NCBI GenBank assembly: GCA_015064445.1
Contig: SVSE01000006.1
Coordinates: 2,358-66,357 of the forward strand
From: Oscillospiraceae bacterium
GTDB taxonomy: Bacteria > Bacillota > Clostridia > Oscillospirales > CAG-272
Length of the DNA: 64,000 nucleotides
Direction of reading: 5' to 3'
In this document: in pieces, positions 1,781 to 41,020 of the stretch
How the letters are laid out: the number at the start of each line of letters is the position of its first letter
How positions within the stretch are numbered: position 1 is the stretch's first letter
Notes under the pieces: model-generated
Told to the model about the DNA's origin: nothing
Databases searched by the model: none
The model's input: the letters and a program-made list of their open reading frames with translations, nothing else
Program-made: the position numbers and the translations under genes

Positions 1781-3916
1781 ATGTTAGAAAATTCATTTTG
1801 GATTTCATATCCCACCAAAGAGGACTACACCTGTCCTGTATTTAAAAAGAAATTTACTGTTTCTAAGGAAATTAAAAAAGCGACACTAAAAATCACTTCT
1901 CTTGGCTGTTATTATGCTGAGCTTAATGGCGCAAGAATCGGTGATTTTATTTTAGCACCGGGCTGGACATACTATAAGCGCGCTCAAATGCAAACGTATG
2001 ATATTACTCATATGTTAAATAATGAAAATGAAATCAAAGCAACGCTTTCCTGCGGTTGGTTTAACGGTAGAATTAATATAAGAACCAGAAAAGAGCTTCC
2101 GGACGTATATCCCGCATTGATTTGCGAAATCGAGATTATATACAAGGACAACACCAAGGAATATATTTATTCGGATAAAGACTGGGAATGCGCTCTTAGC
2201 AAAATTACATTTTCCGACATTTACGACGGTGAAAGCTATGACGCTACATATGAGGAAAAATTTGTCCCCGTAAAGGTACAGGATTATAGCGAATTTAAAA
2301 TTGTTAAGCAGCAGGGCGAGATTGTCAAGGAACAAGAAGTTATTTACCCTCAAAGCATTTTTAAAACGCCAAAGGGCGAAACTGTTATCGACTTCGGTCA
2401 AAACATGACAGGATATTTTGAAATTAACCTTGATGCAAAGAGGGGCGACAAGGTTTCCTTGTCCGTTGCCGAGGTGCTTGATAAGGACGGAAATTTCTAC
2501 ACGGAAAACTACCGTAGCGCAAAGGCAAAATTTGATTACGTCTGCGCTGACGGGCATCAGGTATACAAGCCAAAGCTATGCTTCTGGGGCTTTAGATATA
2601 TTCGTGTGGATGAATTTCCTTGCGAGGTTACAAAGGATAGCATAAAAGCGATTGTTCTTCATTCTAATATGAAGAGAACGGGCTACCTCGATTCATCAAA
2701 TCCGTTGCTTAATCAGCTCTTTTCAAATATTGTTTGGGGACAAAAGGGCAATTTTCTTGATATCCCCACCGACTGTCCTCAAAGAGATGAAAGACTTGGT
2801 TGGACAGGAGATGCACAGGTATTTATAAGAACCGCATCATATAACTATAACGTTGAAAAATTCTTTGACAAGTGGCTTGAGGACCTTCGCCTTGAGCAAA
2901 AGAGAGAAGGCTTGATTCCTTTCTGCATCCCTCAGGTACACGACAAACCGGGAAGCTCTACCGCCGTATGGAGTGATGCTTCAACCGTATGTCCCTGGCA
3001 AATTTATCTAACCTATGCAAACAAAAAAATTCTTGCAAGACAATTTAAGTCTATGTGTGATTATGTAGAAGAAATCGGCAGAATTACCAAGGAAAAGTAT
3101 CTTTGGTACGGTTGTTGGCACTTCGGAGATTGGCTTGGACTTGATGCACCCGCAGGCAGCTACAAGGGCTCAAGCAATTCTGACATTATTGCTACAATTT
3201 TCTATGCTTACTCCGTCAGTCTCATTATTAAGGCGGGCAAGGTGCTTGGAAAAAATGTGTCGAAATACGAGCGTCTACATGGCAAAATTTTAGAAAAGGG
3301 CAGAAAAACATTTACCGAGTTTAATACACAAACCGAATGCGTTATTGCTCTGTACTTCGATTTTGCATTGGATAAAAAAGCAGTTGCCGATAGGCTGGCA
3401 AACATGATTATAGAAAACGGCAAAAAACTCAAAACGGGATTTGTCGGCACTCCGTATCTGCTGCATGCGTTATCGCAAAACGGCTACACAGAGCTTGCTT
3501 ATGATTTGCTCCTCCAAGAGGAATTTCCATCTTGGTTGTATTCCGTTAAGCAAGGTGCTACTACAGTGTGGGAGCACTGGGACGGAATAAACGATAAGGG
3601 CGAATTTTGGTCTAAGGATATGAACTCCTTTAACCACTACGGATTAGGAAGTGTGGCTGACTGGGTTTACGGAGTTGCCTGTGGCATTCAAACCGTTGAG
3701 GAAAAGCCCGGTTTTGAGGAGATTGTAATTAATCCTCATCCAACTGACAAGCTTGACCATTTAAGCGCTTCTATTGATACACTAAGAGGAATAGTATCAT
3801 CCAAATGGTATCATAAGGACGGAAAAATAAGATATGAAATTACAACGCCTGTAAAAACCACAATTATAATCGACGGCAAGGCACAGGTTGTGGAGAAGGG
3901 CAGCTATATATTCTGA
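1781..3916 (+). CDS. alpha-L-rhamnosidase, glycoside hydrolase family 78
   Basis: 711-aa ORF carrying the GH78 hallmark 'DIPTDCPQRDERLGWTGDAQVF'. No signal peptide is evident. Confidence 0.9.
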   Translation: MLENSFWISYPTKEDYTCPVFKKKFTVSKEIKKATLKITSLGCYYAELNGARIGDFILAPGWTYYKRAQMQTYDITHMLNNENEIKATLSCGWFNGRINIRTRKELPDVYPALICEIEIIYKDNTKEYIYSDKDWECALSKITFSDIYDGESYDATYEEKFVPVKVQDYSEFKIVKQQGEIVKEQEVIYPQSIFKTPKGETVIDFGQNMTGYFEINLDAKRGDKVSLSVAEVLDKDGNFYTENYRSAKAKFDYVCADGHQVYKPKLCFWGFRYIRVDEFPCEVTKDSIKAIVLHSNMKRTGYLDSSNPLLNQLFSNIVWGQKGNFLDIPTDCPQRDERLGWTGDAQVFIRTASYNYNVEKFFDKWLEDLRLEQKREGLIPFCIPQVHDKPGSSTAVWSDASTVCPWQIYLTYANKKILARQFKSMCDYVEEIGRITKEKYLWYGCWHFGDWLGLDAPAGSYKGSSNSDIIATIFYAYSVSLIIKAGKVLGKNVSKYERLHGKILEKGRKTFTEFNTQTECVIALYFDFALDKKAVADRLANMIIENGKKLKTGFVGTPYLLHALSQNGYTELAYDLLLQEEFPSWLYSVKQGATTVWEHWDGINDKGEFWSKDMNSFNHYGLGSVADWVYGVACGIQTVEEKPGFEEIVINPHPTDKLDHLSASIDTLRGIVSSKWYHKDGKIRYEITTPVKTTIIIDGKAQVVEKGSYIF

Positions 3917-4577: not shown

Positions 4578-5580
4578 AATTAGCACCAAGCACATAAGGC
4601 TTTTCAAATCTTTGCAGTATCTAAGACTTCAATATTCTATGTATTTAGTAGATGAGGATTTGAGAAAAAATCAACCAACTATTGCAGATCAAGAAGAGGG
4701 CTTTTTCAAGAGTTTGGGGTCCGCAATAAAGAATGAGTTTAAATATAATAAGACAAACAAATTGCTTGTGGTAAAAAATAGAATTGATGCTGAAATAAAA
4801 AGATTTATAAGCAATACAAACGAAGTGTTATATAGTGGAAATCAAATTTCTTCCATTGTTAGCGAGATTTTTAAAAATGATATATATTATCTGGAAAAAA
4901 CCATTTTTTCAACAAGTATAGTTTTGGATGGCGAATATAATTACGAATACGAAAAAGAAACTTTAAATTATATATCAATGCTATTATGGAATAAAAACGA
5001 CCATCTATTAAATATGAGAAATAGCATTGAGAATATATATAAGGATTTGGCAAAGCAACCATTGAGTACAAATCAAAAATTATTGTTAGGTGGAACTACT
5101 GCATTGGTATTGTTGACGGCTACGGTGCCTGCATTAGCAATAGGTGGCTTGTCAGCATCGGGCATAACGGGTGGATTGGCTGGATTCGGCACGGCGGTCG
5201 GCCTTGGCGGAACTATGATTGAAGGTGTAGGTTTGATAGCTCTTGCAGAATTGTTATTAGATGGTGCTATTATAGGATTTACATATGCTTTGCTTGACAA
5301 TCACAATAAAAATGAAGTAAAAAAATCATTTAGAAAAATGAATTATAACGCTGTTGCCAAGATGTTAGCTATTAGGTGTTATGTTATGTATGTTGCAAAA
5401 CAAACGATGCCACCAAATGTTTTCAAGGAAAAAACGAGCGAATTGTTGCAAATGCTTCAAGATTTAAAGTCTGATACTGATTATGTTCTCTTAGTAGAAA
5501 GACAAAATATAGAAGAAAATAAAAAGAAAATTAGAGTTTTTCATAATTTGGATGATGAATTGGCAAAAATACTTTGTTAA
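4567..5580 (+). CDS. glycine-zipper multi-TM protein of unknown function (337 aa)
   Basis: A ~175-aa N/K/Y-rich N-terminal domain is followed by the hydrophobic Gly-rich core 'LLLGGTTALVLLTATVPALAIGGLSASGITGGLAGFGTAVGLGGTMIEGVGLIALAELLLDGAIIGF' (repeated GxxxG). A ~90-aa helical tail follows. I recognise no enzymatic motif. Confidence 0.65.
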   Translation: MTNEISTKHIRLFKSLQYLRLQYSMYLVDEDLRKNQPTIADQEEGFFKSLGSAIKNEFKYNKTNKLLVVKNRIDAEIKRFISNTNEVLYSGNQISSIVSEIFKNDIYYLEKTIFSTSIVLDGEYNYEYEKETLNYISMLLWNKNDHLLNMRNSIENIYKDLAKQPLSTNQKLLLGGTTALVLLTATVPALAIGGLSASGITGGLAGFGTAVGLGGTMIEGVGLIALAELLLDGAIIGFTYALLDNHNKNEVKKSFRKMNYNAVAKMLAIRCYVMYVAKQTMPPNVFKEKTSELLQMLQDLKSDTDYVLLVERQNIEENKKKIRVFHNLDDELAKILC

Positions 5581-36948: not shown

Positions 36949-37022
<74 letters not shown>

Positions 37023-37034
37023 TTTTTTTGCTAT

Positions 37035-37111
37035 GTACCCGTAGCTCAGCCGGATAGAGCAACTGCCTTCTAAGCAGTAGGTCGGGGGTTCGAATCCCTC
37101 CGGGTACGCCA
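37035..37111 (+). tRNA. tRNA-Arg (anticodon UCU)
   Basis: Acceptor GTACCCG/CGGGTAC, anticodon loop CTTCTAA, T-arm GGGGG-TTCGAAT-CCCTC, with CCA encoded. Confidence 0.95.
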
Positions 37112-37185
37112 TCTGCAAACCACAGCAGATTGGGGCTTCGCCGTAGGAGACGAAGCTATATAACTCTCGTAAGAGAGCGTTCTTT

Positions 37186-37263
37186 GGTGGGTGTAGCTCA
37201 GCTGGTTAGAGCGTCAGATTGTGGCTCTGAAGGCCGTGGGTTCGAATCTCATCATCCACCCCA
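37186..37263 (+). tRNA. tRNA-His (anticodon GUG) with encoded G-1
   Basis: An extra 5' G (37186) opposes discriminator C. Acceptor GTGGGTG/CATCCAC, anticodon loop TTGTGGC, T-loop TTCGAAT, with CCA encoded. Confidence 0.95.
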
Positions 37264-37269
37264 AAAAGA

Positions 37270-37300
37270 AAAACCGACCATTTGGTCGGTTTTCTTTTTT
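37270..37300 (+). terminator. intrinsic terminator of the tRNA operon
   Basis: ACCGACC-ATTT-GGTCGGT followed by TTTCTTTTTT. Confidence 0.8.
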
Positions 37301-37302
37301 AT

Positions 37303-37549
37303 CCATTGCGAAAGCGATGGTATATCATCACGCTTTAGCGTGTATATCACCACCGAAGGTGTATATCATCAGCCATAGGCTGTATCTTATTTCGCAATGA
37401 TGATATGCAAAACCTTGTTTTGATGATATGCAACGACAAGTCGTTGATGATATGTAAGACCCTGTCTTGATTTTGGCTTTTTATCCAAGTCGCAGACTTG
37501 GTATATCATCAAGATCGCCGTCCTTGTATATCATCAGCCCTTTGGGCTG
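37303..37549. repeat. array of ~9 copies of a 10-12-nt motif (TGTATATCATCA / inverse TGATGATATGCAA) interleaved with unique short hairpins
   Basis: Forward copies lie at 37321-30, 37343-52, 37362-71 (with a degenerate copy at 37383-92), 37502-11 and 37527-36. Inverted copies lie at 37398-410, 37421-33 and 37445-57. Spacing is 19-25 nt. Every spacer is self-complementary. Confidence 0.85.
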
Positions 37550-37572: not shown

Positions 37573-37602
37573 AAAACGCGAAAACCTCGCGTTTTATTTT
37601 TG
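37573..37602 (+). terminator. intrinsic terminator closing the repeat-array region
   Basis: AAAACGCGA-AAACC-TCGCGTTTT followed by ATTTTT. Confidence 0.7.
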
Positions 37603-37640: not shown

Positions 37641-39691
<2,051 letters not shown>

Positions 39692-39692
<1 letters not shown>

Positions 39693-41020
39693 TGTTTAAA
39701 CTAAGTGCAGGCGCAACGAGGGCAATAGAGCTACTCGAGGGCGCAGGCTATGAGGCATACGCAGTTGGTGGAGCGATACGCGATGCGATAATGGGAAATA
39801 CCGTGCAGGATTTCGACATAACCACCTCGGCAACTCCCGAGGAAATGAGATTCGTTTTTAAGGACGAGAGGACGATTGAAACAGGAATAAAGCACGGAAC
39901 GATAACTCTTGCTTATAAGGGCGAGAATGTCGAAATTACCACCTATCGCGTTGACGGAGAATACACCGATAATCGCCACCCAGAAAGCGTTCAGTTTACA
40001 AGAAAGCTAAGTGGCGACCTCGAAAGGCGCGATTTTACAATGAACGCCATAGCCTATAATCCAAACGGTAATATAGTCGATTTATTCGACGGTAGAAGCG
40101 ATATTTCAAATGGAATAATAAGAGCAATCGGAGAGCCTAAGGTGCGCTTTACCGAGGATGCACTTCGAATATTGCGTGCAATTCGCTTTTCATCCTGCCT
40201 TGGCTTCAAAATTGAGGAGAAAACAAGGAAAGCAATGCTCGAATGTGCGCCCTTGCTTTCTAACATTTCAAGGGAAAGAATAGCCACCGAGCTTAATAAA
40301 TTCCTTTGTGGAAAAAATGTAAAAAATGCAATTCTTGAAAACTATGAAATTTTAGGCTATATCTTGCCTGAAATTGCTCAAATGCACGGCTTTGACCAAA
40401 GAAATTCGTGGCACATCTACGATATTTTGGAGCATACTGCCGTGGTCGTAGATAATGTCAGACCATTGCCACATATGCGACTTATGGCATTCTTGCACGA
40501 TATAGGAAAGGTACATACCTTTACTGTCGACGAAAATGGCATAGGACACTTTTATGGGCATAATGGCGCAAGCGAGGCGCGTGCAAGAGAGTTCTTTAAT
40601 GAATACAAGTACGACAATTTCACAAAGGAAAGAGTATGTGCTATTATAAAGGTTCACGACACTCATATTGAGGCAGACAAGGCATACATAAAGAAGAGAA
40701 TGAACCGTATGGGGAAAGAGGCATTTCTTGAGCTTTTGGAGCTTCAAAGGGCAGATAATTTGGCTCAAAATCCCCAAAAGGTTAATATACCTCACTTCGA
40801 TATTGTCTTGAATATGGCAAACGAAATAATTTCCGAGGGCGAGTGCTTTTCCTTGAAGCATCTTGCAATAAACGGAGGCGACCTGATTTCAAATGGCTTT
40901 GTAGCAGGTAAGAAAATAGGAGAAATCCTTGATTTTCTGCTTGAAGAGGTCATTGAGGGCAGGGCAGAAAACGATAAAAATACATTGTTAAAAATAGCAA
41001 AAAGCAAATATGGAGAATAA
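39692..41020 (+). CDS. cca: CCA-adding tRNA nucleotidyltransferase with HD domain
   Basis: 'AYAVGGAIRDAIMG', 'DFDITT', 'RRDFTMNA' and 'FLHDIGK'. The start overlaps the ligA stop (TAATG). Confidence 0.85.

Follow-up and report, generated by a model that had tools for sequence, protein, structure and literature searches.

In a 64,000-nucleotide stretch of Oscillospiraceae bacterium DNA (assembly GCA_015064445.1, contig SVSE01000006.1, positions 2,358 to 66,357 of the forward strand; hereafter the window), the region downstream of a tRNA Gly-Arg-His operon contains a complete and a truncated copy of a dispersed, multi-copy repeat family that is locked in genomic position and dyad-symmetric in layout. 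The element is ~170 bp in size and consists of seven mini-hairpins (hp0 to hp6) with an invariant 10-nt linker between them. In the complete copy of the window, three GTATATCATCA linkers with hp1-hp3 (module A, forward) are followed, after a center, by three inverted TGATGATATAC linkers with hp4-hp6 (module B). We infer that the family works in cis and on single-stranded nucleic acid, with a factor that reads the invariant linker.

The pattern is well above background in the window. Allowing at most one mismatch, TATATCATCA has 18 matches in the 64 kb compared with 6.15 +/- 2.24 in shuffled DNA (none of 100 shuffles reached 18). Eight of the 18 fall within 37321-37536, at 37321, 37343, 37362, 37502 and 37527 on the plus strand and at 37398, 37421 and 37445 on the minus strand, exactly as an earlier reading of this region made from its letters alone (the sequence-only reading) had placed them. 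That reading had named as its own refutation test that the spacers be no more self-complementary than shuffled controls. The best perfect stems of the 10 spacers sum to 52 bp versus 27.4 +/- 2.5 bp in shuffles (maximum 36; none of 5000 reached the observed value), so the pattern passes this test, and for the region as a whole the folding z-score is -11.0 (plus strand) or -9.2 (minus strand). The flanks were also as described, with the tRNA operon and a terminator on one side and a second terminator on the other (Table 1). One palindrome had been misread, since the proposed CACC-ACCGAA-GGTG is actually a linker variant, TATATCACCA, followed by CACC-GAA-GGTG. In full, the plus-strand linkers read T-ATATCATC-A in the forward and T-GATGATAT-G in the inverted orientation with a hairpin after each, module A ends in a degenerate linker, TATCTTA, and the region between this degenerate linker and the inverted linkers is TTTCGCAATG. 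A single T.G pair is present in hp0 on the plus strand.

We scanned one genome per species for three linkers in succession (GATGATAT-N-GATGATAT-N-GATGATAT) and recovered the pattern at 120 or more loci. Among the matches listed, over 90% are from herbivore-gut or human-gut Clostridia metagenome-assembled genomes (MAGs), carrying the labels Acutalibacteraceae, Oscillospiraceae, Eubacteriales, Christensenellaceae and 'Clostridia bacterium', and the few remaining matches of the scan are coding repeats. The order of three forward and three inverted linkers (FFFRRR) is dominant, with 55 of the 156 linker clusters among the matches listed plus near variants, and the order RRRFFF was found in none of these 156 clusters. 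A covariance model (model R1) built from the family alignment detects ~85 full-length copies at 100 bits or more in ~100 loci, most of these in Acutalibacteraceae/Oscillospiraceae MAGs, and scores the right orientation about twice as high as the reverse; the window element (37298-37477) reaches 178.8 bits on the plus strand versus 66.1 bits on the minus strand. Five loci (L009, L022, L073, L077 and L085) have two copies on one contig, and the element of the window is 100% identical in five other metagenome contigs, all of which carry the same LigA. This is the true extragenic repeat family that the sequence-only reading had suspected, in which the hairpins are kept by compensatory change and the linker, not the palindrome, is the conserved part.

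Parsing of 50 copies, 48 of which have the same orientation as the window, revealed a common layout: T-run-TATCC, hp0, F1, hp1, F2, hp2, F3, hp3, TAT.., center, R1, hp4, R2, hp5, R3, hp6 and GATT, where F and R are the forward and inverted linkers. Every position has recurrent hairpin types of its own, such as CCATTGC-GAAA-GCAATGG or CCAAGCC-GCA/GACA-GGCTTGG at hp0, CACGC-N4-GCGTG at hp1, CAAAAC-TTC-GTTTTG at hp4 and CAATTCC-TGC-GGAATTG at hp5. The palindromes had been described as all different, which is true within the locus and does not hold across genomes; given these position-specific types, the hairpins appear unrelated only inside a single locus. In four GC-rich Ruminococcus-like MAGs (L017, L095, L120, L063) the linker is still AU-rich and invariant (GATGATATAC) beside stems of nearly pure G+C, such as CCGCGC-TTC-GCGCGG, showing that different constraints apply to linker and stems. 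Among viral sequences, one IMG/VR contig (L251 8645-8740, the same as L298 and L358) has a true five-unit GATGATATGC hairpin array. The other viral matches to the linker pattern are coding Asp-Asp-Ile repeats, many of them in giant-virus bins, and a phage origin of the family was rejected. Our literature search returned nothing relevant on the linker sequence, on hairpin arrays or on follow-ups of the Gut-1 motif (see below).

The last two forward linkers of the region are present as claimed, but they belong to a truncated second copy (module C; 49 bits versus 179 for the full copy) and not to the same array. The minus strand of module C scores 49.2 bits with model R1 and its plus strand 30.9 bits. 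It has no center and no inverted module, and its hairpins besides the hp0-like one are CAAG-N9-CTTG and CAGCCC-TTT-GGGCTG. Module C is an inverted and diverged paralogue of module B, from which it differs by a compensatory change (AAGAC/GTCTT versus AAGTC/GACTT), and the minimum-free-energy fold allows the two to form pairs.

Further support for a conserved structure is provided by covariation. RNAalifold run on a MAFFT alignment predicts 35 pairs, 24 of them with compensatory changes, and it picked out unprompted a long-range helix (P1) in which TTAT-CC and the 5' arm and loop of hp0 pair with the center and the start of the first inverted linker. Counting pairs in the structure made up of P1 and hp1-hp6, 92.7% of the cells are paired, compared with 74.7% after shuffling and 32-42% when partners are slid against each other. 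Both sides have changed in 361 cells versus 115 in shuffles (none of 500 reaching 361), and 31 of 48 pairs are changed on both sides versus 23.7 (none of 500 reaching 31). P1 itself (columns 3-18 with 130-144) is paired in 99.2% of cells and has eight double-changed pairs, the columns of the hp0 loop included: a GAAA loop is matched by TTTC in the center, GCA by TGC and GACA by TGTC. Covariation of loop columns with the center cannot be accounted for by a local hairpin, and hp0 and P1 are therefore alternative pairings. The structure is under selection, and P1 can close the tRNA-proximal module. We also considered and rejected duplexes between forward and inverted linkers, which had been pointed out as mutually complementary. 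The variant ATCTCATC, frequent at the innermost forward linker (F3), is never met by GATGAGAT in the inverted linkers, nor the reverse, so that the two never co-occur in nested partners; P1 also surrounds three forward linkers, a further point against such duplexes.

The genomic position of the element is locked as well. In the window the operon ends in ...CCA, which directly abuts the bidirectional terminator, and the terminator occupies the entire gap between the CCA end and the element. Across the family, 26 of the 48 copies have a co-oriented tRNA or transfer-messenger RNA (tmRNA) whose end lies 32-42 nt upstream of hp0, with only an A-run, a hairpin and a T-run in the gap. The upstream tRNAs are of at least twelve identities, one further upstream tmRNA was recovered by Rfam, and at one locus (L077) the element follows a 23S-tRNA-5S-tRNA ribosomal RNA (rRNA) operon. 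The signature ...CCA plus A-run just before the terminator, from a tRNA, tmRNA or tRNA fragment, is found in 40 of 48 copies versus a background of 3.5%, and one and the same terminator-plus-element unit is found behind different tRNAs. The tRNA-adjacent position was therefore rightly judged to be meaningful, as adjacency to stable RNAs and their CCA ends holds across the family. On the other side, the nearest long downstream open reading frame (ORF) is directed away in 33 of 37 cases, and at least 14 of the 48 copies have, at the end of hp6, a TTGATT that doubles as the -35 box for a TGnTATAAT 17 nt away. With a terminator upstream and a promoter downstream, the element fills the space between the terminator and the next promoter. 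A promoter inside the linker was discarded, as the sequence has no usable -10 hexamer on either strand.

Copies without a called tRNA are in some cases cut by contig ends; others have a 15-20-nt tRNA 3' fragment. In four loci a 190-540-bp insertion into a tRNA 3' end has this fragment as its right-hand direct repeat (Table 1). Each insertion brings its own terminator and sits between the intact tRNA and the original terminator and element. In appearance the insertions are integrative elements, miniature or decayed, with tRNA 3' ends as their targets. Since the element lies outside the direct repeats of the insertions, it is ancestral chromosomal flank rather than integrated DNA. The sequence-only reading had raised transposon ends and tRNA-linked integration, and neither fits this arrangement: no transposase was found among the neighboring ORFs sampled (those beside 10 array-rich loci), and in the window the element abuts the terminator of an intact tRNA with no direct repeat, as would be needed for an integration scar or att site.

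Table 1. Coordinates of the element, its neighbors in the window (64,000 nt) and related loci elsewhere (L numbers).
Feature	Position	Strand	Description
tRNA-Gly(TCC)/tRNA-Arg(TCT)/tRNA-His(GTG) operon	36949..37263	+	ARAGORN and Rfam tRNA matches
Bidirectional intrinsic terminator	37264..37300	both	A-run, CCGACC-ATTT-GGTCGG, T-run; from sequence and folds
Complete element	37299-37472	+	Terminator T-run, TTATCC, hp0, three forward linkers, center, three inverted linkers, GATT
P1, 5' strand	37299..37314	+	TTAT-CC-ATTGCGAAAG; end of T-run, hp0 5' arm and hp0 loop
hp0	37303..37320	+	CCATTGC-GAAA-GCGATGG; local hairpin, rival pairing to P1
Module A	37321..37389	+	Forward linkers TATATCATCA at 37321, TATATCACCA at 37343, TATATCATCA at 37362
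hp1	37329-37342	+	CACGC-TTTA-GCGTG (module A)
hp2	37351-37361	+	CACC-GAA-GGTG (module A)
hp3	37370-37382	+	CAGCC-ATA-GGCTG (module A)
Center (P1, 3' strand)	37390..37403	+	TTTCGCAATGATGA; reverse complement of hp0 5' arm and loop, overlapping the start of the first inverted linker
Module B	37398..37472	+	Inverted linkers TGATGATATG at 37398 and 37421, TGATGATATGT at 37445; final GATT
hp4	37408-37422	+	CAAAAC-CTT-GTTTTG (module B)
hp5	37431-37446	+	CAACGAC-AA-GTCGTTG (module B)
hp6	37456-37468	+	AAGAC-CCT-GTCTT (module B)
Truncated second copy (module C)	37478..37549	+	T-run, ATCC, hp0-like CCAAGTC-GCA-GACTTGG, forward linkers at 37502 and 37527
Second terminator-like hairpin	37573..37602	+	AAAACGCGA-AAACC-TCGCGTTTT, then T-run; separates the truncated copy from the ligA promoter
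ligA	37671-39692		Downstream of the second terminator
tRNA-3'-end insertions	L029 4740-5070(-); L106 500-830; L077 520-860; L011 4845-5500
PF05635 loci	L019 6496-6867, L073 1066-1434, L075, L074, L071, L028, L044, L082, L052, L055, L007, L010, L085, L103
Single-direction arrays, 5-9 units	L105 589-761(-), L114 4800-4897, L065 828-1029, L056 2041-2574, L095 7610-7752, L063 5887-6010

Some further observations concern the neighborhood. At L057, L073, L082, L110, L031 and the L077 second copy, two conserved sequences take the place of the tRNA before the A-run and terminator, one being ...TTGCTATTTTRAKCTGTAAACAC and the other ...TCAGTTTTCAGGCA..TTCGTGTCATTAAGTTCRAACTACCCA; they could represent small RNAs missing from the annotation, or conserved ends of genes. 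A PF05635 gene (~115 aa; 23S rRNA-intervening-sequence protein, a four-helix bundle of the Avd family of diversity-generating retroelements) lies at or near the element in 14 of ~100 loci. In the loci inspected it is the first gene past hp6, often with a promoter whose -35 box is the hp6 end; the upstream tRNAs of these loci differ, in L007 the gene sits between two copies, and the window has no such gene. The gene that follows ligA in the window (39677-41020) encodes a CCA-adding enzyme/poly(A) polymerase family protein (PF01743, PF12627, PF13735), and tRNA operon, element, ligA and cca thus share one locus, which is probably a coincidence.

The two strands of the element are not equivalent. 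Internal mismatches, read in window orientation, are seven G.T and no A.C in module A, and no G.T and seven A.C in module B. We surveyed 293 distinct hairpins lying between two like-oriented linkers, each read with its linker as 5'-ATATCATC-3'. In this GTATATCATC orientation there are 17 G.T versus 5 A.C mismatches, two to three of the five A.C being chance or coding matches. The loops are GAA (46), GCA (27), GCAA (17), GGA (11) and GTA (10), compared with three TTC; GNA loops (94 of 293) and GNNA loops (~50 of 293) together make up about half, and the closing pair is C-G in 241 hairpins. The favored, better-folding strand is the GTATATCATCA strand in both modules and switches at the center. 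Because of the inversion of the modules, exactly one module in the favored orientation lies on either strand of the element. C-to-T mutation with the ordinary strand bias would be expected to yield the opposite sign on sense strands. On its favored strand, a module presents three to four short GC-clamped hairpins with GNA or GNNA caps and, between the hairpins, linkers that are invariant, G-poor and AU-rich and stay single-stranded. We also considered the scarcity of G.U pairs as evidence for DNA and rejected it. The adjacent terminator hairpins are equally wobble-poor (5 of 406 pairs) yet act as RNA (UUCG loops), so wobble scarcity does not discriminate.

The sequence-only reading had suggested that the family might be novel, and here it needs correction. 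No Rfam family reaches its threshold over the element in the window or in the 18 plus 20 family loci scanned, and the only near match is Gut-1 (RF01706), at 29.1 bits versus a gathering threshold of 50 (37317-37392, minus strand, module A; E = 7e-4). As a positive control, locus L001 has a bona fide Gut-1 at 53.9 bits (4740-4819(+)), and it lies 90 nt from an array with the same linker as in the window (GATGATAT; 4882-4984(-)). Gut-1 was described as a three-hairpin RNA found in human-gut metagenomes only, with context and function unreported (Weinberg et al. 2010, PMC2864571). Its consensus has GUGAAAU between three hairpins; some members of the original alignment have GUGAUAU linkers and a fuller layout of gene or tRNA, terminator, GUUAUAUUCGCC-hairpin, three GUGAUAUU units, GGCGAAUAUAA and three or four AUAUCAC units. 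Our metagenome scan recovered ~30 Gut-1-type loci. Both kinds of element have variable, covarying mini-hairpins (at least three) with C-G-closed triloops and a short conserved AU-rich linker of the UGA(A/U)AU type, the GAUAU core being common to GUGAAAU/GUGAUAU and to UGAUGAUAU here. The Gut-1-type loci also share the two inverted modules, the long-range pairing of the first-hairpin flank with the center and the post-terminator position, some of them after tRNAs, and one favored-orientation module per strand occurs in both families. The element differs from Gut-1 in scoring below the family threshold, in its longer and different linker and in the mirrored polarity of its modules (FFFRRR, versus RRRFFF in the Gut-1 type); the Gut-1 polarity, with a GUGAUAU-type module next to the upstream terminator on the sense strand, is not found in it. 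Gut-1-type arrays have too few mismatches to tell the strand by wobble. The element is best filed as a mirror-image sister or variant of the Gut-1 kind of hairpin-linker element; what is new is its architecture, its placement rule (behind RNA genes that end in CCA) and its strand asymmetry.

Arrays that run in a single direction with the same linker also exist, with 3-9 units, either between co-directional genes such as infB-rbfA or past the terminator of a gene (Table 1). Where an upstream gene runs in the same direction, its sense strand is the GATGATAT strand in 6 of 6, infB-rbfA included. Further linker dialects are GATTCCATAC and GCGATATAT. The contig of L001 also has hairpins joined by GATTCCATAC- and GATTAATAAC-type linkers, indicating that several dialects coexist in one genome, and L088 has a separate array with the linker GCGATATAT downstream of an array at 3076-3131.

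The reading to which we tentatively lean is that the element is a polar, two-way boundary at the RNA level, acting on transcripts that run into it. On one side these would be read-through of the tRNA operon, which is very active, and on the other antisense transcripts. Their hairpins would fold co-transcriptionally and present the linkers as evenly spaced single-stranded sites, to which a sequence-specific factor would bind. The factor could be one that terminates transcription, for example Rho (each linker has two UC dinucleotides), or it could be an endoribonuclease, for example RNase Y (a G, then an AU-rich stretch upstream of a stem), and the transcript would be stopped or cut. The operon-internal single-direction arrays would represent the permissive orientation, in which sense transcription passes. 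The element shares with bidirectional terminators and insulators its position at a transcription-unit boundary, where it abuts a bidirectional terminator, and its dyad symmetry gives it the same appearance to polymerases coming from either side. Unlike terminator hairpins, those of the element have no U-tracts and would not terminate alone; the conserved linker implies that a factor is involved. An array of intrinsic terminators was rejected on the same grounds, as the hairpins are followed by GUAUAUCAUCA or UGAUGAUAUAC and T-runs are present only at 37264-37300 and 37573-37602. We also rejected a CRISPR (clustered regularly interspaced short palindromic repeats) array, in which the 'repeat' would be 8-11 nt and the 'spacers' 11-19-nt palindromes that are position-conserved across genomes, in arrays inverted three against three.

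Several observations weigh against a boundary that acts on RNA. The loop repertoire bears the hallmark of DNA mini-hairpins of extraordinary stability, not of RNA tetraloops, and is dominated by C-G-closed GNA triloops and by GNNA tetraloops that are not GNRA (GTCA, GTTA, GACA). Module B of the window folds with z of about -1.0 under RNA parameters, like shuffled sequence, versus about -4.3 under DNA parameters, and the 48 copies range from z = -5.2 to -7.6 with DNA parameters and from -2.6 to -5.3 with RNA parameters. The favored strand of module B is antisense to all nearby annotation, and the wobble statistics consist of few events only. Moreover, the linker polarity of the Gut-1 type relative to the upstream terminator is the opposite, so a simple model, with the functional module first in the path of the incoming strand, does not generalize. 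A rho gene was not found in the DNA sampled, which weighs neither way.

The same loops and z-scores favor the chief alternative, which we regard as possible though somewhat unlikely: a DNA-level hairpin element, strictly analogous to repetitive extragenic palindromes (REPs) and bacterial interspersed mosaic elements (BIMEs) or of the single-strand initiation (ssi) type, in which single-stranded or supercoil-extruded DNA is functional. The GNA/GNNA hairpins of the GTATATCATCA strand would resist SSB and a DNA enzyme would recognize the single-stranded linkers, for example a transposase of the HUH class resembling the REP-associated tyrosine transposase (RAYT), for dispersal, a primase or restart factor, or a topoisomerase below very active genes. 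The inverted modules would place one functional module on each DNA strand, as do REPIN doublets. According to a review, DNA mini-hairpins of the type d(GCGNAGC) or d(GCGNNAGC) are extraordinarily stable and resist SSB, RNA versions are much less stable, and such mini-hairpins occur at the phage G4 origin, RSF1010 ssiA and the promoters of the N4 virion RNA polymerase. The hairpins of the family share the design of these sites, with stems of 4-7 bp that are closed by C-G and, in about half of the 293 hairpins, a GNA or GNNA loop specific to one strand; the N4 and ssi sites are single phage or plasmid sites with a dedicated polymerase or primase, whereas here seven hairpins and a conserved linker form a chromosomal repeat. 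The recurrence of one terminator-plus-element unit behind different tRNAs also fits, as does a polarity toward upstream transcription that is not conserved between the sister families.

In genomic behavior the element is comparable to REP/BIME sequences, which are likewise multi-copy and extragenic and lie after genes or terminators near the 3' ends of transcription units. REP, BIME and REPIN sequences also share the alternating or inverted hairpin units, the conserved connecting motifs and the one 'top' unit per strand. Gyrase, IHF or RAYT can bind to BIMEs, which can also have effects on termination and on the 3' ends of mRNAs. The two kinds differ in what is conserved, a 20-40-nt palindrome with a GTAG foot in REP versus a 10-11-nt linker between variable stems of 4-9 bp here; there is no sequence similarity, and adjacency to CCA-ending RNA genes is not a REP feature. 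Four observations weigh against the DNA-level reading. No RAYT (a Y1 HUH transposase), primase or other candidate enzyme was found among the ORFs beside the 10 array-rich loci sampled. Copies differ by many compensatory changes instead of being near-identical recent transpositions. The 6 of 6 single-direction arrays that are oriented consistently to transcription are not predicted by a purely DNA-level role, and P1 requires at least 100 nt to be single-stranded simultaneously. We tentatively read the element as a boundary repeat that works in cis on single-stranded RNA, possibly DNA.

A functional RNA made from the other strand, the GAUGAUAU strand in which Rfam orients Gut-1, seems to us unlikely. 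One possible form is a small RNA that terminates at the shared bidirectional terminator; another is a structured segment of a 3' untranslated region or between cistrons that would stabilize or process sense transcripts or titrate an RNA-binding protein. Curation of Gut-1 as a likely RNA in that orientation speaks for it, as do the minus strand of module A, which continues into GGAUAAAAAA and a good terminator, and the single-direction arrays, where the same strand is the sense strand of the flanking genes. The wobbles, however, are biased toward the opposite strand, by 17:5 overall and by 7:0 and 0:7 in the two modules, the loops would be UNC triloops of no known stability, and the 15-25-nt center has neither the room nor the conservation for a promoter starting two divergent RNAs. 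Many position-locked copies per genome are also atypical of a trans-acting small RNA. A protein-titrating RNA, one of the roles suggested by the sequence-only reading, is disfavored as a trans-acting molecule given this multi-copy, position-locked placement and the lack of a conserved promoter.

More improbable still is a selfish or neutral repeat without host function, in which template switching (quasi-palindrome correction) and gene conversion among tRNA flanks would maintain the palindromes. One-sided changes are nearly absent relative to double changes, the adjacent terminators are just as poor in wobbles (5/406), and terminator-plus-element units are shared behind different tRNAs, all as expected of such processes. 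They would not explain why position is locked and why the architecture is kept across family-level divergence, with position-specific hairpins, an invariant linker, P1 covariation and strand-specific loops. Least probable of all is a double-stranded array of protein-binding sites, with the 11-bp linker as an operator iterated three plus three in inverted orientation before the next promoter, bound by a nucleoid, partition or regulatory protein, and with incidental palindromic spacers: the 11-bp motif is indeed invariant and dyad-symmetric in arrangement and at least 14 of the 48 copies have a last unit that runs into the -35 box of the next promoter, but helical phasing of the sites is excluded by an hp2 spacer of anywhere between 11 and 33 nt, and incidental spacers would not give 361 compensatory cells, C-G loop closure and strand-specific loops. 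An iteron- or centromere-like array was rejected on the same hp2 range and on linker-to-linker distances of 19 to more than 40 nt, the spacing not being constant but following the length of the hairpins.

If an RNA-level boundary is the right reading, a large clade of uncultured Clostridia from gut and rumen sets off its stable-RNA operons at their ends by means of a dedicated and highly engineered element that no annotation pipeline recognizes. A more speculative and rather unlikely extension is that the element and Gut-1, taken as one superfamily, form a chromosomal DNA-structure device, in which strand-specific arrays of SSB-resistant GNA mini-hairpins would arise in single-stranded or supercoiled DNA directly downstream of the genes with the heaviest transcription (tRNA, tmRNA and rRNA) and a dedicated protein would read the linkers; with similarly low confidence, its roles might be replication restart, torsion relief or a polar block to polymerases. 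Such a device, if real, would be a bacterial counterpart to the fork and transcription barriers known from eukaryotic rDNA and tRNA gene 3' ends. Gut-1, an orphan motif for 16 years, gains a full-length architecture of two inverted modules and a closing helix, together with a genomic context (post-terminator, often post-tRNA) and a testable polarity. As the element is compact and its parts (stems, loops, linker, P1 and orientation) are separable, the question of RNA or DNA and of what reads the linker is directly testable. The linker-reading factor is likely to be new Firmicutes biology, whether the linker proves to be a termination or processing signal or the site of a DNA-hairpin-binding enzyme.

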